64,000 nucleotides of DNA. It comes from a candidate division WOR-3 bacterium (GTDB lineage Bacteria > Hydrothermota > Tepidihabitantia > Tepidihabitantales > Tepidihabitantaceae). This document shows, piece by piece, positions 439 through 11,042 of the stretch (position 1 is its first letter; every line of letters begins with the position of its first letter). The stretch covers positions 112,603-176,602 of the forward strand of contig CBFGJX010000003.1 in the NCBI GenBank assembly GCA_965649225.1, given 5' to 3'. The notes beneath the pieces are model-generated. The model made no database searches. It worked only from the letters and a program-made list of their open reading frames with translations, and was not told where the DNA came from. Made by a program: the position numbers and the translations under genes.

Positions 439-1287
439 TCAGTCCCTGCCGGCGAAGGACAGGTAAGAGTAGTAGGTCCCTTCGCCATCCTCGTTGTCCG
501 GCACCCAGATTGCGCGTGACTTCTCTGTCGTTGCATCAAAATTGGCCACATGCAGCTTCAGCACCCATCCGGCATGTTCAAACTGCCCGGATTCTTTCAG
601 TCGAAACAAGTCATAGGAAAATCGCACGCGCGGATACTCGACGAATTTCTGCTGAACCGGATCAACCCGGAATGCCGGCGGCTGCATCAGCATCACCAGC
701 TCCGCAAGAATGTCGGTCAGAAACACTCTGGTGCCCGGCGGCAGGTTGCCCAACAGCAACTGACGCTGATATGCGCGGTGCAGCAGCTCGATCATTCTCG
801 CTGGCGGCACCGCCTTCTCGGCCAGTCGTTCCTGCCAGGTCTGCAACATTGCCACCAGCGCACCCGGGTCGAGGCTCAACCCTGTTTTCAGTCGCTCAAC
901 CCGTGGTCCCCAGAAGATGCTTGCCTTGCCCGCCGCAAAATCAACCTCCAGTCCGAACAGCCCGACCCGCAACTGCGGCAACTGGCCCTTCACCGTCATA
1001 CCAGTTCCCTCGAGCGCTGCGCTCAGACTCCGGCCAAACTGGTAGCGGAGCTCATCCTTCTGTACCGCCACCGCATTCTGCTCGGTTGCCAGCCACACTT
1101 TCAGTTCCTCTTTCATGGTGGTGTCGGCAAAACCTTCCGCCGCCTGCGCCAGCCGCGCCAACGCGGTCTCTCGGACAAATGCGTTTTTCTGCGGTTCGGC
1201 GAGCAGGGACTGGTATTCTTCAAGACCGCGGGCAAGTTTCGTTGCTGCCGCTCCAAGCGCCTTCAACCGGGCAACTAGTCCTTCCAT
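439..1287 (-). CDS. hypothetical 282-aa protein with coiled-coil-like N-terminus; first gene of a coupled pair with the downstream P-loop NTPase
   Basis: ORF track; ATG at 1287..1285 preceded by GAGG; stop TGA at 441..439 lies 7 nt before the NTPase start; no catalytic motif recognised. Confidence 0.55.
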   Translation of the reverse strand: MEGLVARLKALGAAATKLARGLEEYQSLLAEPQKNAFVRETALARLAQAAEGFADTTMKEELKVWLATEQNAVAVQKDELRYQFGRSLSAALEGTGMTVKGQLPQLRVGLFGLEVDFAAGKASIFWGPRVERLKTGLSLDPGALVAMLQTWQERLAEKAVPPARMIELLHRAYQRQLLLGNLPPGTRVFLTDILAELVMLMQPPAFRVDPVQQKFVEYPRVRFSYDLFRLKESGQFEHAGWVLKLHVANFDATTEKSRAIWVPDNEDGEGTYYSYLSFAGRD

Positions 1288-1539: not shown

Positions 1540-3138
1540 ATGATCGCCAGACTGCTGCTGAACCTGCTGACAACAGGCGGATTGCTGACTACTGATTACA
1601 TCGGCCGGGTGGACACCATCGGCGGCACGGTCTACGACTGGCAGCTGGGCGGACCCCAGTACCGGTTTCTTGTCTGTTCCGAGCCGTACGGGCTGCACGC
1701 TGCCTGGCTGTATTCCTCAAACCCGAACAACTATCCCGACCGCAACGAGCGTTACAACTTCTATGACTTCGCGACTCGGCGGTGGAACTGGATTGACTCC
1801 AACTTCATGCAGTCGGGCATGGGCGTGTTCGGGGCACGGTCCGGCTTCGGCACTTTGGGCGCCGACCCTGTCTCGGGCGGGGCCGTGCTCTCCACGCATC
1901 AGGGTATCATTTACCCGGCCGTTGCCCGTGACGTCGCGCCCGGGGCCGGGATATTCGATTACTGCACCGGCCAGCCGCAGCTGGAGGGATACCTGGGGCC
2001 GGTGCTGGCCGTCAGCGGAACAGGCACGCTGCACCTGGCGCTGCTGGACGACTCGACGCGCGACCGGCTCTACTACTCACGCGCCGCCACCTGGTGCAAC
2101 TGGGACCCGCCCGTCGCGCTTCCTCCGCCGCTGCCTGCCCCGATGTTTCCGTGCCACAACATCGCGGCGTCGCGCTACGGCACCAGGGTCGCCGTTACTT
2201 GGGTATTCTCCGATGAAGCCGGGCCGGTCAACCCGGGGTTCTACCGCGAATCACCCGATGATGGCGTGACTTGGGGCCCGCCCGAGGAACTGCCGATTCC
2301 TAACCCGTACGGGCCGGACACGATCGCTTCGTTTCACATCAGTTCGCTGTATCCGTACTACGACTCGGACAACAACCTTCACATCGTGGCGAGCGTGAGG
2401 CCGATCGTGCGCGATACAGCCTACGTGCTGCCTGCGGCAGTCTACCACTGGTGCTCGGCCAACACCCCACGCTGGAACATCGTGCACCGCACTGATTGCG
2501 ACAGCCTCGCTGGCAGTATCGGCTACAACGCGCTGTACGCGACCCGACCGAGCATCGGCCAGGACGGCCGCGGCCGACTGTTCATTGCGTGGGAGCAGTT
2601 CCACCCGCGGAATGTCGAGCCGCGAACCGGCCAGTTGCGCGCCGGCGTTTGGATGGCGGCCTCCACCGATCGGGGACTGACCTGGACCCCCGGCCTCTGC
2701 ATTACCGACTCAAACACGGTTTCGCACCGGTTCCCGTCGATGGTCGACGTGGTGATGCCCGGCGATACCGTGGCAGTGCATTACCTGATGGACCTCGAAG
2801 CCGGATTCGTGGTACAGGGCCAGGGCCGGCATACCGAGAACCCGGTTGTGGTGCAGTTCGTGCACGCAGAACTGCTGGGTGTGAAGGCTGACGAACAGAC
2901 TCAGGCGGCCGGAACGAGGCTCGGGCCGACTATCGTTTGCGGAACGCTGCGGACAGAACGGCAGTCCGAAGGCACCCTGCGGCCAGAGCTCGTGAATGCA
3001 ACCGGGCGAAGGGTAATGAAACTCAAGGCCGGCGAGAACGACTTGACCCGGCTTGCGCCCGGCGTCTACTTTCTGATGGAATCAGGACCGGTCACCGGGG
3101 CCCGCAAGACGAACCGGAAAATAATCATCGCGCGCTAG
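1540..3138 (+). CDS. secreted BNR/Asp-box repeat (sialidase/glycosyl-hydrolase-like) protein with T9SS C-terminal sorting domain
   Basis: Asp-box motifs SPDDGVTWGPP and ASTDRGLTWTPG; N-terminal hydrophobic signal MIARLLLNLLTTGGLL; C-terminal ...LAPGVYFLMESGPVTGARKTNRKIIIAR. Confidence 0.8.
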   Translation: MIARLLLNLLTTGGLLTTDYIGRVDTIGGTVYDWQLGGPQYRFLVCSEPYGLHAAWLYSSNPNNYPDRNERYNFYDFATRRWNWIDSNFMQSGMGVFGARSGFGTLGADPVSGGAVLSTHQGIIYPAVARDVAPGAGIFDYCTGQPQLEGYLGPVLAVSGTGTLHLALLDDSTRDRLYYSRAATWCNWDPPVALPPPLPAPMFPCHNIAASRYGTRVAVTWVFSDEAGPVNPGFYRESPDDGVTWGPPEELPIPNPYGPDTIASFHISSLYPYYDSDNNLHIVASVRPIVRDTAYVLPAAVYHWCSANTPRWNIVHRTDCDSLAGSIGYNALYATRPSIGQDGRGRLFIAWEQFHPRNVEPRTGQLRAGVWMAASTDRGLTWTPGLCITDSNTVSHRFPSMVDVVMPGDTVAVHYLMDLEAGFVVQGQGRHTENPVVVQFVHAELLGVKADEQTQAAGTRLGPTIVCGTLRTERQSEGTLRPELVNATGRRVMKLKAGENDLTRLAPGVYFLMESGPVTGARKTNRKIIIAR

Positions 3139-3168
3139 CACGACTGTCACAGCTGCACCTGCCGGCGG

Positions 3169-3783
3169 TCAACCGCCCGATCCAGACTTGCTATGCGACG
3201 AACGGGCGCGAGAAAACTCACAACCGCAGTAGTGCTGACGGTAGATTCCCATTTCCCGGGAAACAACCACACTCTGCTGTTGTCCGCCCTGCTTTTTCCA
3301 GTCTCCCTCGAGAAAATGCAGACCGTATCGCGCACAGGAGGCCCGCCCGATTGAGTTTATCACCTCGGCTCGCTTGTTGCGGCCAACCGTCAGCGTCGAT
3401 GCCACAACACTGCAGCCATTGGCAATCGCCGCCGCCGCTGCCGACTCGAGTCGCAACCGAAAACAGGTCAGACAACGTGACCCGCCCTCGGGTTCAGCTT
3501 CCTGCCCGGATACGGCAGCCAGAAATCGCCCGTGGTCGTAGGGAGCGACATCCAGCTGCAGATGCCACAACGCACTCAGCTGCTCGGCCGCCAGCAGCCG
3601 CCGGCTGTACTCGTCTTCCGGCCAGATATTGGGATTGTCAAACCAGCCAACGATATCATAGCCATCACGCAGCCGCAGCAGCACCGCAGTCGCACAGGGG
3701 GCACAGCAGATGTGCAGCAGCAGTTTCGGCCGCAGACTGTCGGCGGCAGCTCCGGTGTCAGCTCGAGCCATCGGTATCGACAT
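3169..3783 (-). CDS. queH: epoxyqueuosine reductase QueH (DUF208 family)
   Basis: Motifs KLLLHICCAPCAT, RCLTCFRLRLE, YRQHYCGCEFS; start moved to ATG at 3783 (MSIPMARAD...) which has SD GAGGGG 6 nt upstream; the ORF-track start at 3843 lacks an RBS. Confidence 0.85.
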   Translation of the reverse strand: MSIPMARADTGAAADSLRPKLLLHICCAPCATAVLLRLRDGYDIVGWFDNPNIWPEDEYSRRLLAAEQLSALWHLQLDVAPYDHGRFLAAVSGQEAEPEGGSRCLTCFRLRLESAAAAAIANGCSVVASTLTVGRNKRAEVINSIGRASCARYGLHFLEGDWKKQGGQQQSVVVSREMGIYRQHYCGCEFSRARSSHSKSGSGG

Positions 3784-3825
3784 TATCCGCCCCTCACTGC
3801 CGGTCAAGCGGATTGATTCTGTGAA

Positions 3826-4599
3826 TTGACTGCTGTGCTCCAACCGCTAGTCTTGACCGTGCCGCTCGTCCATGACCGAGAAAGACTCCGTGGCTGGCTC
3901 CAGTCGCTGGGCGCCCGCACGGCGTCGGTTCGAAACCTGGTGTTTGGCACTGCCGGCCTGCGCGCACGCTGGGTACGGGTTGACCATCTGGAACGACCCC
4001 GGGCAATCGTCTGCCGTGGCCGCAGATTCTGTCTTTGGGCCCGGGACTCAGCCCACGCCCAAGCCCTGCTGGGTGAAATACCAAACCACTTCCGGCCCCA
4101 GTTCGGCGCCACTCCCACCCGGCTGCTGGCTGCCTGCCGAGCACGTTTTTCTGACCGAAACCAGGCCCGGTTCTGGCATGAACCTTGCTGGCTTTACGAA
4201 TTTGCTGGCAAGATACCGGCCCGGCCAGCCGTCAAGGTCGGCGTGCTCCGTCAAGCTGATGCTGCAACCGTTGCCCGGTTCTGGCCCCACGGTCGTCGGC
4301 CCGAATATATTCGCTCTCGTATTGCCGCTTGGCCGTCAGCAGCCATTCGTCGCCAGGGCCAGCTGGTAGCGTGGGGTCTGACTCATGACGACGGCTCGAT
4401 GGGATTTCTCCACGTCCGTGAAGAATGGCGCGGCCTGGGGCTGGCTCGCGCAATCACCACCGCCCTTGTACGCCGCCTGCTGCGCCTGGGCATCCGACCT
4501 CATCTGTATATCGTGCGCAACAATCTTCCCTCAATTGAGCTGAGCGAAAGCATGGGCTTTCGCCGTGTTGAATCCTATTCCTGGTTTGGTTGGGGCTAA
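3826..4599 (+). CDS. putative GNAT-family N-acetyltransferase (C-terminal acetyl-CoA-binding motif); start uncertain (TTG in track)
   Basis: C-terminal RGLGLARAITTALVRRLLRLGIRPHLYIV resembles GNAT motif A (R/Q-x-x-G-x-G/A); no clear RBS; 4-nt convergent overlap with the next gene. Confidence 0.45.
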   Translation: MTAVLQPLVLTVPLVHDRERLRGWLQSLGARTASVRNLVFGTAGLRARWVRVDHLERPRAIVCRGRRFCLWARDSAHAQALLGEIPNHFRPQFGATPTRLLAACRARFSDRNQARFWHEPCWLYEFAGKIPARPAVKVGVLRQADAATVARFWPHGRRPEYIRSRIAAWPSAAIRRQGQLVAWGLTHDDGSMGFLHVREEWRGLGLARAITTALVRRLLRLGIRPHLYIVRNNLPSIELSESMGFRRVESYSWFGWG

Positions 4600-5795
4600 C
4601 GCAATCCTGACGCGGCCAGCTCTCTCAATGCTTTCAGCTCATTGACAATCTGACCCGCCTCGTTGACGCTGGTCGCCAGCAGCAGTACCGCACCTTTGTG
4701 TTCTTTACGCTGTGCCCGGCGCAACGAACCAAGGAAATCCTCGATCTCGTTAGCCGGCGTATCGAGCCAGCCGCCCAGCAGGTCACTGCGAACGACCACA
4801 ATCACCTCGTCCCGCCCCGGAGTCGGCCAGCGGTCAGCCTGTACCGAGACGACGATGGCAGCCTCAGCGGTACCGGACTCGAGACTACCCGGCACATAGT
4901 AGCCGAAACCACGCCGCACCAGACCAAGCACGTCGAGCTCGGTGAGCCTGTCGAGTATCTCCTTCTGTCGTTCGCTCCAGTCGCCGTTCGGAAACGGCTC
5001 ACCGCGCTTGATCTGACTGGTGGTGGCTCCACCAAAAGCCGTCGCCGAAACATGCTCCTCCACGAACCGACGCTGCGCCGGTGCCGCCGGCTCCACCGGC
5101 CGGTCGGAAATTTGCCCGGACTTGGGTTGAACCGGTGCCGGCCCCGTCGGCTTGGCTGGCGAGGCAGCGGCCGGTTGCCGAACCGCCAGCAGACGCGGCC
5201 GGACGACCTCGTTGCCACCGAAGCGCCAACAATCCCAGGAGCACAGGCGAACCTCAAGATTCATGTTTACCAGAAAGGCAACCGCCTCTTTGACTATCGG
5301 ATCTTCCTTCTCGACGAAAAGAACCACCGGGAACCGCCCGCCGAGCAGAGAGTTTTCGGTGCCCTTTCTGAAAGCATCGGCCGACCAGTCGGGGCCCACC
5401 CGACGGCTGATCCAGTCAACCAGACTCATGCCGAGGAATCGCTCGAACGGGTCGGCAAGTCGCTCGTACGACTGCCGCCAGAGCCAACCATTGGCCGCCA
5501 GCACCTCGCTGACCAGCGTGTTCATCGGAGTTGCGGCATCAGGGCACGCCACAACCATCACTCCGCCGGTCTCGGTCACCGCCAACAACACATGGCCGGA
5601 TTCGGCCTGCGGGGCCGGTGCCGCAGCGCGCGGCAGCGGCTCACCGGCAAGAAACAACCCGAGAAACTCCGGTGCCTCAATGACAAGCCGGACAGTGTCC
5701 AGCTCTCGCGACGCGCCCGAACCCGAAAACTCACGCCAGTTGTCGCCCGAATGAGCCACGCGCAGACAGAATGGTGCGAAACCCTGTTTCATCAC
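4596..5795 (-). CDS. hypothetical protein, paralog of upstream gene, with Pro/Ala-rich linker and extra C-terminal domain
   Basis: Shares two blocks with the 5792..6886 product. Block 1: GHVLLAVTETGGVMVVACPD...WLWRQSYERLADPF versus GFWTAVDENGNVIIVAIAGDG...RLWRMSVEEYTKHF. Block 2: FRKGTENSLLGGRFPVVLFVEKED...LEVRLCSWDCWRFGGNEVVRP versus FRSGLEQSLARGHFAVRLVAPDEND...LDVVGLVPEHYECCGVEVVVARP. ATGA overlap with the upstream gene. Confidence 0.6.
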   Translation of the reverse strand: MMKQGFAPFCLRVAHSGDNWREFSGSGASRELDTVRLVIEAPEFLGLFLAGEPLPRAAAPAPQAESGHVLLAVTETGGVMVVACPDAATPMNTLVSEVLAANGWLWRQSYERLADPFERFLGMSLVDWISRRVGPDWSADAFRKGTENSLLGGRFPVVLFVEKEDPIVKEAVAFLVNMNLEVRLCSWDCWRFGGNEVVRPRLLAVRQPAAASPAKPTGPAPVQPKSGQISDRPVEPAAPAQRRFVEEHVSATAFGGATTSQIKRGEPFPNGDWSERQKEILDRLTELDVLGLVRRGFGYYVPGSLESGTAEAAIVVSVQADRWPTPGRDEVIVVVRSDLLGGWLDTPANEIEDFLGSLRRAQRKEHKGAVLLLATSVNEAGQIVNELKALRELAASGLR

Positions 5796-6886
5796 CGCTT
5801 GCTGCCGAGACCGCCCCAGCCGGACTTGGGTGGACGCTTGTTGGACATGATTCCCGGCAAAGTGCCGGGCCCGGGACCCTTGCCTTGTTCCGGTGGCGGT
5901 GAAACCGGCCTGGTAGAAAGTGGCGAACGTGTCGCCGACTGTGGACCACTGCCGCCGGCCGGTTCGCTCACCGGCGGCTCATCCAACCCGCCCAGCTTCG
6001 GCCAGTTCCGCTCGATTTTGCCTTCCTTGGCATCGTCGGAACCACCCGGTGCCGACCCGGTTCCAAAGCTTGCCTGACGGGGCTCGGTTGCCAGTGTCGG
6101 TGGACGCTGAGATTGCCAGCCTCCTGCCGGACCCGTGCTGGCTGCGGGCTTGACACCAGCCTCTGTCGGCTGCGGTATTGGCTTCGCCGCCGGTTTTGGC
6201 CGCTCAATCGGCACTGCCCTAGGCTCAGGATGCACAATGACCGGTCGAGCAACAACAACCTCGACTCCGCAGCACTCGTAATGCTCCGGTACCAGGCCGA
6301 CTACATCCAGACCCAGCATCGCCAGATGTCCGATTGCCTGCCGGCATTCGTCATTCTCGTCCGGTGCTACCAATCGCACTGCAAAGTGCCCGCGAGCCAG
6401 ACTCTGCTCCAGTCCGGACCGGAACTTGTCACCGCTCTTGGCCGCCGGAAGAACAGCTGCGGCAATCTCCCACAAAGGCAAACCGCCGACACTGGCAAAA
6501 TGTTTGGTGTACTCTTCAACCGACATCCGCCACAATCTTCCCAGCAGAACCATTGTCTCACGAACAAGTTCAGTCCAGTCTTGGCGCGAACCGTCGCCGG
6601 CGATGGCGACGATAATCACGTTACCGTTCTCGTCAACCGCCGTCCAGAATCCGGCCTGAGCGGCTCTCCCTGACGACAAGGGCGCCAGTGCGACAATCCG
6701 CGGTCCGCTCGGCAGATGGAAATTGAGAAACTGAGGGGTATCACGCAGCAGTGCCGGAAGGTCCAAAACCCCCTCGGCAGGCACCGGCAGCACGACATTC
6801 CAAGTCCCGGCATCACCGCCGCTCACGCGGAAGGAAAAATGCTCAGCCGGGCCGACGGCTGACTGCGTGTCCGACTCGGATGCCAC
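5792..6886 (-). CDS. hypothetical protein (paralog family, no signal peptide), long Pro/Gly-rich C-terminal tail; GTG start
   Basis: ORF track; start codon plus-strand cac at 6884-6886 = GTG; sits immediately after a consensus promoter. Confidence 0.6.
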   Translation of the reverse strand: MASESDTQSAVGPAEHFSFRVSGGDAGTWNVVLPVPAEGVLDLPALLRDTPQFLNFHLPSGPRIVALAPLSSGRAAQAGFWTAVDENGNVIIVAIAGDGSRQDWTELVRETMVLLGRLWRMSVEEYTKHFASVGGLPLWEIAAAVLPAAKSGDKFRSGLEQSLARGHFAVRLVAPDENDECRQAIGHLAMLGLDVVGLVPEHYECCGVEVVVARPVIVHPEPRAVPIERPKPAAKPIPQPTEAGVKPAASTGPAGGWQSQRPPTLATEPRQASFGTGSAPGGSDDAKEGKIERNWPKLGGLDEPPVSEPAGGSGPQSATRSPLSTRPVSPPPEQGKGPGPGTLPGIMSNKRPPKSGWGGLGSKR

Positions 6887-6891
6887 GCTAA

Positions 6892-6920
6892 ATTATAGCG
6901 GGCAATCTTGTAACTGTCAA
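6892..6920 (-). promoter_or_regulatory. perfect consensus sigma70 promoter TTGACA-17-TATAAT; -10 ends 5 nt before the GTG at 6886
   Basis: Minus strand: aaacaTTGACAgttacaagattgcccgcTATAATttagcGTGgcatcc. Confidence 0.6.
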
Positions 6921-6934
6921 TGTTTCAGAAGCTT

Positions 6935-6962
6935 GGCGGCGGCAGTCGATCCTGCCGCCGCC
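6935..6962 (-). terminator. GC-rich hairpin GGCGGCGGCAG-tcgatc-CTGCCGCCGCC immediately downstream of the porB stop
   Basis: Perfect 11-bp stem, 6-nt loop, 16 nt after the stop at 6979; no U-tract. Confidence 0.55.
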
Positions 6963-6978
6963 GGTAGCTTGTTGACTA

Positions 6979-7911
6979 TTAGGCGCTGAAGGCAGCCTGA
7001 CGCCGATGCAGCAGCTCCCACTGGCGATCAACCTGTCGCTGCAGTTCTGCTATCACCGCCTTGCCTTCATCGCCCTTGAACAGGTGGCTGAACCGCCCCT
7101 GCGGCCGCAAGAACTCCTCAATCGGTTTCTTCTCTTTGGGCTCGTAGTTAATCCGGTATCCGCCGTTCTCGTACTCGTAGATTGGCCAGAAACAGGTGTC
7201 GGCCGCCAGTTTTGACACCTCAATGGTCTGGCTGCCCGGATGACCCCAGCCCAGTGGACACGGCACCAGCACGTTGAGGAACGCCGGCCCGTCCGCAGCC
7301 AGCGCCTTCTGGACCTTGGTGACGAGGTCGTTCCACAGCGCCACGGTCGTCTGGGCGGCGTAGGCAGCGTTATGGGCGATCATTATCTCGACGATATCCT
7401 TGCGGTGTACGAGCTTCCCCGGCACTACCTTGCCGGCAGGCGAGGTCGTCGTGTGCGCGCCATAGGGCGTGGCCGACGACCGCTGGATACCGGTATTCAT
7501 ATAGCCCTCGTTGTCGGTGCAAACGTAAAGAAACTTGTGCCGACGCTCGAATGCGCCCGACAGAGCCTGGAAGCCGATGTCGTAGGTACCACCGTCACCA
7601 CCGAAGGCGATAAACTTGACGTCTTCCGTCATTCGGCCGGTCTTCTTCTTGAACCGATAGGCAGCCTCGACACCCGAAGCGGTGGAAGCCGCTGTCTCAA
7701 ACGCAGTGTGGATCATCGGTATCTGCCATGCGCTGTGCGGGTAGATTGACGAGAAAATCTCGGTGCAGCCGGTTGGCATTATTCCCACCACCGGTTGCGG
7801 CGCGGCCAGCAGAACCTGTCTTACCGCCAGTGCTTCGCCACAGCCGGCGCAGGCGCGATGACCGCTCGAAAACAATTCGGGATTCTGACAGAGGTCCTTG
7901 AGTCTTGCCAT
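6979..7911 (-). CDS. porB: pyruvate:ferredoxin (2-oxoacid) oxidoreductase, beta subunit (TPP-binding)
   Basis: CAGCGEALAVRQVL, FGGDGGTYDIGFQAL, VCTDNEGYMNTGIQRS motifs; last gene of the por cluster. Confidence 0.9.
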   Translation of the reverse strand: MARLKDLCQNPELFSSGHRACAGCGEALAVRQVLLAAPQPVVGIMPTGCTEIFSSIYPHSAWQIPMIHTAFETAASTASGVEAAYRFKKKTGRMTEDVKFIAFGGDGGTYDIGFQALSGAFERRHKFLYVCTDNEGYMNTGIQRSSATPYGAHTTTSPAGKVVPGKLVHRKDIVEIMIAHNAAYAAQTTVALWNDLVTKVQKALAADGPAFLNVLVPCPLGWGHPGSQTIEVSKLAADTCFWPIYEYENGGYRINYEPKEKKPIEEFLRPQGRFSHLFKGDEGKAVIAELQRQVDRQWELLHRRQAAFSA

Positions 7912-7914
7912 TGC

Positions 7915-9069
7915 CTACCTCACTCCAATGTAGGTCACGAGCTCATCCTTGGTACCGGCCAGTGCGCCTTCGAGAGCTGTTGCCGCATCGACAAGCGAAA
8001 ACTCCTTGCCGCCCAGCCCGTAAACATAGGAAAGCACCGCCGGGCGCCGGTCCAGTTCATACAGCGCTGCTCTGGTCTCGGTGTAGAGCGGGCCGCCGAA
8101 TGAATTGACGGAGTCGGCACGATCAAGCACGGCCACGGTACGGTAACGAGCCAGCTTCTCCTTCAGCAGCCGGTGTGGCAGCGGACGAAACACGCGTAAT
8201 TTGACCATACCCACTTTCCTGCCTTCGTTGCGCATTGCGTCTACGGCATCGCGCATCGTGCCGCAAGCCGAACCCATCAACAGCACTACCGCTTCGGCGT
8301 CGTCAGTACGGTACTCCTCGATAACACCGTAGCCGCGACCAAACCGCGTCTGAAACGCACGCTGGACCTCTTCGATCACCGGCAGTGCCTTGTTCATCCC
8401 CTCGATCTGCGAGCGCTTGAACTCGAAATAGTAGTCCTGCATAGTTGCCGGGCCGACGAGAATCGGCTTCCTGATGTTGAGCAGGTCCCAGTTTGGCTGC
8501 CAGCGGCCCAGCCAGTCCCTTACCGCCTTGTCTTCCAGCGTTTCCATCCGCTCCATGCAGTGAGACAGGATAAAGCCGTCGACGCAGCACATCGCCGGCA
8601 GCGAGGTCCGCTCGGCAATCTTCACACACTGAATCAGCGTATCGTACCCCTCCTGCACCGACTCGCAGAAGAACTGCAACCAGCCCGAATCACGCGAAGC
8701 CAGCGAATCGGAATGGTCACCGTGGATGTTCAGCGGCGAAGAAAGCGAGCGCGATGCAACCGCCATGACAATCGGCAGCCGCAGCCCGCCGGCGATAAAC
8801 AGCATTTCATGCATCAGCGCGAGCCCTTGGGACGCGGTCGCTGTCATCGTCCGGCAACCCGCCGCCGCCGCACCGATGCACGCCGCCATCGCCGAGTGTT
8901 CGCTCTCGACAGCGACGAACTCGGAGTCCACGATGCCGTCGCTGACGTAGCTGGCAAATATCTGAACGATTTCGGTCGAAGGCGTTATCGGATAGGCAGC
9001 AACGACGTCGGGATTGATCTGCTTCATCGCATAGGCCAGCGCTTCGTTCCCGGTCTTGGCAATAATCAT
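7915..9069 (-). CDS. porA: pyruvate:ferredoxin oxidoreductase, alpha subunit
   Basis: MIIAKTGNEALAYAMKQINPDVVAAYPITPSTEIV... typical PorA N-terminus; 384 aa. Confidence 0.9.
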   Translation of the reverse strand: MIIAKTGNEALAYAMKQINPDVVAAYPITPSTEIVQIFASYVSDGIVDSEFVAVESEHSAMAACIGAAAAGCRTMTATASQGLALMHEMLFIAGGLRLPIVMAVASRSLSSPLNIHGDHSDSLASRDSGWLQFFCESVQEGYDTLIQCVKIAERTSLPAMCCVDGFILSHCMERMETLEDKAVRDWLGRWQPNWDLLNIRKPILVGPATMQDYYFEFKRSQIEGMNKALPVIEEVQRAFQTRFGRGYGVIEEYRTDDAEAVVLLMGSACGTMRDAVDAMRNEGRKVGMVKLRVFRPLPHRLLKEKLARYRTVAVLDRADSVNSFGGPLYTETRAALYELDRRPAVLSYVYGLGGKEFSLVDAATALEGALAGTKDELVTYIGVR

Positions 9070-9356
9070 TTCCGCTCCGTTTCCATCGTTATCGCCTGCA
9101 CCTTTTTCGGGCAGACACTGGCGCAGATGCCACAGCCCTTGCAGTAGTCGTAGTTAATGCCCGCTACTTTCCCGTCAACAATCAGAATCGATGCATCCGG
9201 GCAGTATATCCAGCAGGTGTAGCAGTTGATGCACTTTTCCTTGTTCCACACCGGCCGCTGTGATCGCCAGGCCCCGGTTTTGTTTTCCAGTACCGCCTTG
9301 GGATCGTCGATAATCGCCCCGCAGGGCAGTTCCTTCCAGCTCAACAGCCTTGCCAT
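9066..9356 (-). CDS. porD: pyruvate:ferredoxin oxidoreductase, delta subunit (2x[4Fe-4S] ferredoxin)
   Basis: CINCYTCWIYCP and CKGCGICASVCP cysteine motifs; 96 aa; ATGA overlap with porA. Confidence 0.85.
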   Translation of the reverse strand: MARLLSWKELPCGAIIDDPKAVLENKTGAWRSQRPVWNKEKCINCYTCWIYCPDASILIVDGKVAGINYDYCKGCGICASVCPKKVQAITMETERK

Positions 9357-9357
9357 T

Positions 9358-9969
9358 CTAGCACCTCACCTCTTCGTAGGCCCGACGGATGCTGACAAGA
9401 TTAGGCGCGATAAACTTCTCTTTACCACCCCGGAATTTCTCCGCCAGCTTGCCTTCGATCGCCTTCATCATTGACTCGAATTCCAGCACGCCGGTAACCT
9501 TGACCAATGCTCCCAGCATCGGGGTATTGGGCACGTTCTTGCCCACGGTCTCCATTGCGATTCGCGAAGCATCAACGACATACAATTTGATGTGGTCCGG
9601 AAGTCGCATCCTCGCCCGCAGCACCGCAGGGTCCTCGGTGGAGTTGACAAGCAGAATCCCGCCGTCCTGCAGGCCATCGGTGACCCGCGCCGGCTCGATC
9701 AGCGAAGCATCAAGCACAACCACAATCCGCGGCGTCTTCACACCGGCATGCGAACGAATCGGTCGGTCAGAGAGCCGGTTGAATGCCTGTACCGGTGCGC
9801 CCATTCGCTCCGGCCCGTACTCTGGGAACGCTTGAATGTACATCCCGGTGTCCAGTGCCGCTTCACCAAACAACAGCGCCGCGGTTTTGGCACCCTGACC
9901 ACCACGACCGTGCCAGCGTATTTCCAGCACCTGGCCGGCGAGGTTGATGCAGACATCTGATACAGCCAT
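9358..9969 (-). CDS. porG: pyruvate:ferredoxin oxidoreductase, gamma subunit
   Basis: WHGRGGQGAKTAALLFGEAA motif; RBS aaATGGAGGcaagATG at 9969. Confidence 0.85.
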   Translation of the reverse strand: MAVSDVCINLAGQVLEIRWHGRGGQGAKTAALLFGEAALDTGMYIQAFPEYGPERMGAPVQAFNRLSDRPIRSHAGVKTPRIVVVLDASLIEPARVTDGLQDGGILLVNSTEDPAVLRARMRLPDHIKLYVVDASRIAMETVGKNVPNTPMLGALVKVTGVLEFESMMKAIEGKLAEKFRGGKEKFIAPNLVSIRRAYEEVRC

Positions 9970-10097
9970 CTTGCCTCCATTTTGAAGCCCGGCCCGGATG
10001 CAGTCCGCAGCACTGACAGCGAATCAGGACCGCCTGCTGGCTTCCGGCCTGCCGCCCGGTCGGGCATCTTGTTCGAAATTGTCCTTAGCGGCCGACA

Positions 10098-10125
10098 ATG
10101 TTACTCCTGACAGGAGTAAAGTCAA
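10098..10125 (-). promoter_or_regulatory. putative por promoter TTGACT-16-TAACAT whose spacer is filled by a 19-bp palindrome TTACTCCTG-a-CAGGAGTAA (10101-10119), a candidate operator
   Basis: Minus strand: ggTTGACTttactcctgtcaggagTAACATtgtcgg; palindrome is perfect except for the central base. Confidence 0.4.
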
Positions 10126-10165
10126 CCGCCTGAATCAGACTCTGGAAAGGAAAATTGGCTGTCGG

Positions 10166-10194
10166 TTGACCGTACCGGCAGGCGAAACTATGAT
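10166..10194 (+). promoter_or_regulatory. putative promoter TTGACC-17-TATGAT ending 5 nt before the fpg ATG (leaderless mRNA predicted)
   Basis: ggTTGACCgtaccggcaggcgaaacTATGATttgccATG. Confidence 0.45.
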
Positions 10195-10199
10195 TTGCC

Positions 10200-11042
10200 A
10201 TGCTCGAGTTGCCCGAGATCGAGGTCATCCGGGAACGGCTGCGCCTCTCGCTTGTCGGCCGGCGAATCATATCGGTTGACGCCTTAGAACGCCGGGCGCT
10301 GGTGACCCGTCGGATACCGCCGGCCGCTCTCGTCGGGACTCATCTCGGCTCGATCATCAGACGAGGACGCCTGCTGGTGTTTGAAACCGACGCCGGCACG
10401 GCGTTCTGCGCCCGCCTTGGCCGCACCGGCTTTTACAGCCTGCGCCCCAACGCCGCTCCGGTTTCACCCCGTGCAGTACTGGGTTTCACCACTGCCGAGG
10501 CGGGACTGGACATAATTGAAGGCGGCCGCCGTCTCCGCGTCGAACTGGCAATCGCTGACAAAACAACCAATCTGCCCTGGCTGGGCCGCACCGGCCTTGA
10601 TCCGCTTGACCCTGCGTTCACCCTTACCGCGCTGCGCTCAAGGCTGTCGCGGTGCGACTGCACTCTGCGACTGGCCCTGTCCGACAACCACGTTATCGCC
10701 GGACTCGGCGACGCCTTTGCCGACGAGGTCCTTTTTGAGGCCCGGCTTTCTCCGTTTGAACCCAGCGCACTGCTTGGCCCCGCCGAAGCAGTCCGGCTTC
10801 ACCTTGCCATCAAGAAGACCGTTTCCAGTGCTGTGGTTCGCTACCGAACACTGCCAGCCGGCACTTTGCCGGACGAAACCCATCGCGACTTCCTGCGCAT
10901 TCATCAGCGAGCCGGTCAACCGTGTCAGGTCTGCGGTACGCTCATCAAAACCGTACGCGAAGGCAGTCTGACCTCATTTTACTGCCCGACCTGCCAGACC
11001 CACGGCATCGAACTTGCTGACCGCAACGCCCCGCTCCGCTGA
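10200..11042 (+). CDS. Fpg/Nei-family DNA glycosylase/AP lyase with C-terminal zinc finger
   Basis: N-terminus MLELPEIEVIRERL (compare Fpg MPELPEVE); C-terminal CQVCGTLIKTV...FYCPTCQ zinc finger; 280 aa. Confidence 0.8.
   Translation: MLELPEIEVIRERLRLSLVGRRIISVDALERRALVTRRIPPAALVGTHLGSIIRRGRLLVFETDAGTAFCARLGRTGFYSLRPNAAPVSPRAVLGFTTAEAGLDIIEGGRRLRVELAIADKTTNLPWLGRTGLDPLDPAFTLTALRSRLSRCDCTLRLALSDNHVIAGLGDAFADEVLFEARLSPFEPSALLGPAEAVRLHLAIKKTVSSAVVRYRTLPAGTLPDETHRDFLRIHQRAGQPCQVCGTLIKTVREGSLTSFYCPTCQTHGIELADRNAPLR

Follow-up and report, generated by a model that had tools for sequence, protein, structure and literature searches.

Paired genes between porB and queH in candidate division WOR-3 encode predicted pseudo-nucleases of NucS-like ancestry

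A 64-kb stretch of a candidate division WOR-3 genome (64,000 nucleotides of contig CBFGJX010000003.1, positions 112,603 to 176,602; hereafter, the window) carries two adjacent genes between porB and queH, which are here called gA and gB. Three points can be made on their identity: (i) gA and gB are real genes that candidate division WOR-3 has inherited vertically; (ii) profile comparisons trace the N-terminal domains (N-domains) of both predicted proteins to a widespread family of NucS-like PD-(D/E)xK nucleases of ~360 amino acids (aa); and (iii) to judge from their sequences, both proteins are pseudo-nucleases. Taken as a whole, these claims of identity are held with high confidence. As to their role, the best overall explanation, to which we give about an even chance, is that of a co-transcribed pair of dead nucleases which act as a non-catalytic adaptor complex.

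The reality of both genes is supported by homology, selection and structure prediction. A word search retrieved 33 orthologs of gB (36-99% identity) and six of gA (45-96% identity), and the codon usage of both genes is within the range of other window genes. Hence, the combination of missing homologs and atypical codons, by which the first-pass annotation of this DNA would have recognized spurious reading frames, is not what is found here: homologs exist and codon usage is ordinary. In a comparison with the close relative L018, the ratio of nonsynonymous to synonymous substitution rates (dN/dS) was 0.053 for gB, 0.155 for gA and 0.146 for the disordered tail of gA alone. The full-length AlphaFold2 (AF2) model of gB reached a mean predicted local distance difference test score (pLDDT) of 82.6, with values mostly >90 in both folded domains, and the C-terminal domain (C-domain) modelled alone gave a pLDDT of 90.2 and a predicted template modelling score (pTM) of 0.86. 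Synonymous divergence (dS) from L018 is very uneven along the region (window 4596-7911 versus L018 1001-4316), i.e., 0.47 in porB, 0.13 in gA and 0.064 in gB, and the promoter region is identical between both sequences; the uneven dS suggests either recent recombination or a sweep over gA-gB, or an unusual synonymous constraint.

The paralogy of gA and gB spans their first ~210 residues. BLASTP aligned both proteins at E=2e-12 (29% identity over 214 aa), and a profile made from gB orthologs alone matched gA at 4e-26. These results bear out the first-pass annotation, which had described tandem paralogous genes of 364 and 399 aa with two shared conserved blocks, both of which were located in the proteins, and with a Pro/Ala/Gly-rich low-complexity segment in each protein, which the composition of the gA tail and of the gB linker confirms. 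That annotation gave no strand (both genes lie on the minus strand), and it reported an ATGA overlap between them: stop and start do overlap, but the junction reads GTGATG, so that gA, whose stop is TGA, and gB share 4 nucleotides (nt) (GTGA) or 1 nt (TGATG). Judged by eye only, neither gA nor gB has a signal peptide.

That no known domain could be recognized in these proteins also holds true for the standard libraries, which were silent for both: direct searches with gA and gB gave no match in Pfam, NCBIfam or PADLOC at E<=1, nor in PHROGs at E<=0.01. Against PDB sequences, gA and gB gave no match and the WOR-3 N-domain profile gave noise only, while Foldseek, run on the gB model, found no PDB match under E=0.1. 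When 1.84 billion representatives were searched exhaustively with a profile, 819 proteins scored E<=1e-3, of which 321 reached E<=1e-10. The top ~99 cluster representatives (P0001-P0099) are of the WOR-3 type, that is, gA-like or gB-like. Below them stands a large set of ~350-370-aa proteins which match the N-domain only, at about 1e-20, and which have a textbook nuclease site D...ECK...QxxxY, as in P0100 ("...TDLVGVDTNGGVYIVECKL...VVGQVLEYA"); they are referred to here as the ECK family.

The WOR-3 N-domain profile aligned with the ECK family over 200 columns (hhalign probability 99.9%, E=8e-32), and the ECK family profile aligned with NucS (2vld) at E=0.0066, across the D...ExK site. Members of the ECK family scored 22-23 bits against Pfam NucS_C, whose cut-off is 24, and weakly matched the NCBIfam NucS model; moreover, they matched PADLOC PDC-S11 (PDLC04916) at 1e-11 to 1e-16, and some of them carry DUF4268. 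Cluster look-ups for these relatives gave "hypothetical protein" names only (e.g., Armatimonadota UCH36307.1), and no functional information was found in the literature on PDC-S11, DUF4268 and QueH neighbourhoods. The link of gA and gB to NucS is, then, a remote one, via an uncharacterised intermediate family, and does not amount to a clear match to a characterised family. As evidence of sequence homology to the PD-(D/E)xK superfamily, this chain of matches is strong, if indirect. The alpha-beta-beta-beta-alpha-beta core of PD-(D/E)xK nucleases is present in the N-domain of gA and gB; the nuclease-like fold for which the first-pass annotation proposed to look is thus found in the shared domain, though its catalytic residues have all been lost.

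Regarding that loss, the alignment splits cleanly at five active-site positions. Nearly all of P0100-P0206 read D...E-C-K...Q...Y, whereas the WOR-3-type proteins (~99 of ~99 representatives) read [V/L]...[A/G/V]-C-P...[E/D]...[A/T/L] or have degenerated further. At these positions, gB reads V69, A83-C84-P85, E97 and A101, and gA reads F, A-I-A, E and L. The WOR-3-type proteins also lack the basic stretch that follows the ExK strand (NPEIRR), and what they share with the ECK family are chiefly hydrophobic or structural residues (W, F, G, L, P). Since the Asp, Glu, Lys, Gln and Tyr have been replaced and the basic residues after ExK are gone, canonical PD-(D/E)xK cleavage looks impossible.

Outside the N-domain, gB consists of a Pro/Ala-rich linker (aa 207-268; 16% Pro, 18% Ala) and a C-terminal alpha/beta domain, and gA of a tail (aa 216-364) with 19.5% Pro, 15.4% Gly and an isoelectric point (pI) of 10.2. 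The folded domains of both proteins are acidic (pI 5.0-5.3). Near its end, the gA tail bears a peptide of 13-15 residues, located 7-22 residues before the C-terminus and followed by a few basic residues. This peptide is exact in 25 gA-type cluster representatives and occurs as a near-variant in seven more; none was found in gB-type or active nuclease proteins or in other window or locus proteins. Other, Trp-bearing motifs of the gA tail are repeated in some close orthologs (among P0035-P0039), which is consistent with repeated docking sites.

The C-domain is confined to gB-type proteins, and gA-type proteins are devoid of it. Its best fold matches are the MotA C-terminal domain and YjbR-like proteins, with low scores and 9-10% identity, and it has conserved basic residues (R294, R322, R360 and an RKEHKG loop). 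That this domain goes back to the C-terminal half of the active nucleases was considered and found no support (hhalign probability 2%). In one sub-lineage of gB orthologs (P0013, P0016 and P0018; 572-582 aa), the C-domain is tandemly duplicated.

As regards expression, a search of the window for TTGACA-17-TATAAT that tolerated one mismatch found this site alone, and the motif arose in 0 of 100 shuffled sequences; the first-pass annotation was right in placing the only perfect promoter of this kind directly before the pair. The GTG start of gA sits 5 nt past the -10 element, and, of 14 orthologous loci, 13 keep the arrangement TTGAC(A)-17-TAnnAT, then exactly 5 nt, then GTG, ahead of the pair's first gene. 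As the GTG is placed where transcription should begin, this arrangement implies a predicted leaderless, GUG-initiated gA-gB mRNA that would start at the gA GTG itself. Several other genes of the window have -35/-10-like hexamers 3-9 nt before their starts (Table 1). Given this similar spacing, leaderless transcription seems to be a habit of the WOR-3 genome studied, in which leaderless mRNAs, GUG-initiated ones included, may be common; compared with the other promoters of the window, the sole special feature of the gA-gB promoter is its perfect consensus.

Just upstream of the promoter, a strong hairpin (dG -32.8 kcal/mol, z -6.35) follows porB. The first-pass annotation had called it the porB terminator: the hairpin is indeed present but has no U-tract, so that it resembles a terminator without being a canonical intrinsic one. 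Hairpins likewise follow porB in L005, L006, L009, L011 and L018, with different stem sequences, which points to a conserved, structure-based terminator or processing signal other than the canonical kind. Rfam detected no RNA elements over window 3000-10300.

Table 1. Features of the gA-gB region, and window genes with promoter-like sites near their starts (window coordinates)
Feature	Position	Strand	Description
gA	6886..5792	minus	364 aa, GTG start; N-terminal predicted pseudo-nuclease domain and disordered basic Pro/Gly-rich tail with conserved end peptide
gA N-domain	6227..6850	minus	aa 13-220; NucS/RecB-like PD-(D/E)xK fold, predicted catalytically dead; hidden Markov model E=4e-26
gA strand VIIVAIAG	6596..6619	minus	aa 90-97; in the place of the (D/E)xK catalytic strand, AIA for ECK
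gA disordered tail	5795..6226	minus	aa 221-364, pI 10.2
gA tail motif WQSQRPPTL	6092-6118	minus	shared by close orthologs as WQSxRPPTL
gA tail motif EGKIERNWPKLGG	5987-6025	minus	EGKxERNWPKLGG in close orthologs, one or two copies
gA C-terminal peptide GTLPGIMSNKRPP	5828..5866	minus	aa 341-353; consensus (W)xGTxPGVM(A/S)GKRPP
gB	5795..4596	minus	399 aa from GTG, or 398 aa from ATG at 5792
gB N-domain	5178..5786	minus	aa 4-206; predicted pseudo-nuclease; confident model from about aa 30
gB strand VMVVACP	5541..5561	minus	aa 79-85; ACP for catalytic ECK
gB Pro/Ala-rich linker	4992..5177	minus	aa 207-268; pLDDT <50 at aa 226-261; ortholog lengths vary
gB C-terminal alpha/beta domain	4599..4991	minus	aa 269-399, ~130 aa, family-specific
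Sigma-70-type promoter	6920..6892	minus	TTGACA 6920..6915, 17-nt spacer, TATAAT 6897..6892; 12/12 consensus positions
GC-rich hairpin	6962..6935	minus	just past the porB stop; 11-bp stem, 6-nt loop; terminator-like, without U-tract
Fpg-like gene	10200	plus	promoter-like site near start
1035-aa gene	44210	minus	promoter-like site near start
queH	3771	minus	promoter-like site near start
GNAT gene	3859	plus	promoter-like site near start
282-aa gene	1287	minus	promoter-like site near start

A scan of one genome per species found 13 loci, most of them titled candidate division WOR-3 and the others belonging to unclassified "bacterium" or "uncultured bacterium" metagenome-assembled genomes. The gA-gB pair recurs in at least 16 distinct loci of candidate division WOR-3. 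In the loci of the scan and in further metagenomic contigs, the usual gene order is porB, gA, gB, GNAT (on the opposite strand) and queH, and in most loci a gA-like gene precedes gB. The upstream neighbour varies: porB takes this place in most loci, a type II secretion F gene does so in L001, and further loci have other genes. The most constant neighbour is queH, which lies <=3 kb downstream in 13 of the 15 loci that reach far enough; in L001, L003, L013, L021 and L022, it borders directly on the gB stop or overlaps it. In L007 and L015, queH was not found downstream.

Around the pair, the neighbours identified in the window are four PFOR subunits, a GNAT/FR47 acetyltransferase and QueH. No further copy of the N-domain or of the gB C-domain, and no active ECK nuclease, was found elsewhere in the window. 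Many WOR-3 loci have the GNAT gene between gB and queH, and others are without it. In the window, the GNAT stop (TAA, plus strand) and the convergent gB stop (TAG, minus strand) overlap inside the four bases CTAA (4596-4599); at the other end, GNAT/FR47 (plus) and queH (minus) are divergent (3771-3859), with interleaved candidate starts and promoter-like sites. Two more sizeable open reading frames (ORFs) nearby, 1540-3138 (plus, 532 aa) and 442-1287 (minus, 282 aa), had no Pfam match at E<=0.001; L018 holds a homolog of the 532-aa protein at the same position.

How such a pair might work can be outlined as follows. Both genes would be transcribed as one two-gene unit from the strong promoter, on a leaderless mRNA beginning at the gA GTG, and the translation of gB would be coupled to that of gA, a coupling made likely by the overlapping stop and start, which are also found in orthologs. 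The N-domains of gA and gB might then pair, as nuclease-fold domains commonly do, into a non-enzymatic adaptor complex; its flexible arms, which carry the gB C-domain and the gA peptide, would bring in partner molecules or hold them in place. The acidic folded domains and the loss of the basic active-site residues favour a protein-protein role over generic DNA coating. This adaptor mechanism, considered on its own, is put forward as a tentative possibility. The adjacency of queH is the only functional hint for gA-gB: since queH is a neighbour of the pair across the phylum and, in five lineages, borders directly on gB, its partner may perhaps have to do with QueH or tRNA, this being the weaker part of the proposal. 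A wider scenario, which must be judged unlikely, is that a defence-type nuclease was domesticated early in WOR-3 into a dead, highly expressed core pair, i.e., a new kind of flexible-armed adaptor, docking through the gA end peptide and the gB C-domain, that works with QueH on tRNA or organises some other essential process.

Several observations speak against this picture of a dead, paired adaptor connected with QueH. In L010, L011 and L015, gB follows porB directly, without an adjacent gA and, hence, gB is apparently able to work alone. In the window, the GNAT gene, on the opposite strand, lies between gB and queH, which has a promoter-like site of its own, and the adjacency of queH may be nothing else than synteny inherited within one phylum. 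Finally, the conserved polar residues D33, R12 and R56 remain, as does the Cys of the old ECK motif; given these residues, gA and gB may have some unconventional activity.

A more specific version of the adaptor would make the pair an accessory to queuosine tRNA modification, in which the scaffold binds tRNA or QueH and presents the substrate to the neighbouring epoxyqueuosine reductase. The neighbourhood from which this idea springs argues against it in several respects: here and in many other loci queH forms, with GNAT, a separate divergent unit with its own promoter-like site, L007 and L015 have no queH downstream, the active relatives of gA and gB are not found beside queH, and synteny inside a single phylum is weak evidence. 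Besides, the basic residues around the old active site have been lost. All in all, this version appears improbable.

No better placed is the proposal that gA and gB are abundant structural proteins that bind nucleic acids (for instance, nucleoid-associated proteins), with the dead fold or the gB C-domain as the binding part and the basic tails adding affinity. The perfect consensus of the promoter fits it, as do the basic tail of gA (pI 10.2), the conserved basic positions of the gB C-domain (R294, R322, R360 and the RKEHKG loop) and the best fold matches of this domain, namely the MotA C-terminal domain, which binds DNA, and YjbR-like proteins; in addition, inactivated nuclease folds often still bind nucleic acid. 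Nonetheless, the acidic folded domains favour the protein-protein role of the adaptor complex, and a structural role of this kind is regarded as rather doubtful.

Far less credible is a reading in which gA and gB, through a non-canonical active site, work as nucleases or as a PDC-S11-type module against phages. Their closest relatives outside WOR-3 do match PDC-S11 at about 1e-15 and have an intact nuclease site, but gA and gB themselves have no PADLOC match at E<=1, five of the five active-site positions are replaced in every WOR-3-type sequence, the context beside por and queH is a fixed core-genome one across the phylum, not that of variable islands, and the genes show strong purifying selection and vertical inheritance. 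Lastly, it is scarcely conceivable that gA and gB are spurious ORFs in GC-rich DNA or that the real gene is the 459-aa antisense ORF 4698..6077 (plus), which does span both genes with codon statistics similar to those of real genes: the minus-strand frames are conserved at the protein level down to 36% identity, with mainly synonymous substitutions (dN/dS 0.05-0.16), confident AF2 models and a promoter and start codon conserved in gA-gB loci, and homology and dN/dS thus mark the antisense frame as a shadow ORF.

To our knowledge, no member of candidate division WOR-3 has been characterised, and many of its conserved genes lack an annotation; two hypothetical proteins can now be described as a defined family. 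Its features are (i) a phylum-wide pair of predicted pseudo-nucleases traced to an active, NucS-like family with matches to a defence candidate; (ii) a clear domain plan; (iii) a conserved, putative docking peptide; and (iv) a conserved promoter of the predicted leaderless type. If the proposed role is right, gA-gB would be a clean, phylum-specific example of enzyme-to-scaffold exaptation. For annotation, a simple rule emerges: proteins of this family, with ACP in the place of ECK, should not be called nucleases. The result is thus useful for annotation; it settles no long-standing question and it is no major surprise.

Among known systems, inactivated nuclease folds serve as structural partners in the nuclease-like domain of RecC and in the non-catalytic subunits of heteromeric tRNA-splicing endonucleases. 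By analogy, gA and gB may be likened to them: they too retain the fold without its catalytic residues, and the paralogs are encoded side by side. The comparison does not rest on sequence, and the WOR-3 pair differs in that both gA and gB are predicted to be dead and that the window encodes no active partner. As for the gB C-domain, no sequence-profile link connects it with the C-terminal "double-wing" domain of T4 MotA or with the YjbR/YdhG-like alpha/beta sandwiches, and the resemblance is perhaps topological only.

The ECK family is much closer. Its whole N-domain of ~200 aa is homologous to that of gA and gB, including a helical insertion and conserved Trp, Phe and Gly positions, and the Cys of ECK is kept as ACP or GCP in the WOR-3 types. 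It differs from them in having (i) an intact active site and a different C-terminal half (2% in hhalign against the gB C-domain); (ii) a single gene in a variable context; and (iii) neither Pro-rich linkers, nor the gB C-domain, nor the gA peptide. Only these active relatives match PDC-S11, to which gA and gB give no match in PADLOC at E<=1, and the context of gA-gB is fixed across the phylum, unlike that of a variable defence island or a mobile element. With NucS/EndoMS, the mismatch-specific endonuclease of archaea and actinobacteria (2vld, 5gke; NucS_C, PF01939), gA and gB share fold and ancestry. Unlike NucS, they have no NucS N-terminal domain and no Pfam or NCBIfam match at E<=1; their catalytic D, E, K, Q and Y are all replaced; they carry a helical insertion of ~45 residues after the catalytic core; and the gA tail peptide does not resemble clamp-binding motifs. 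Lacking the catalytic motif and matching neither the NucS nor the PDC-S11 profiles, gA and gB should not be filed under either family.

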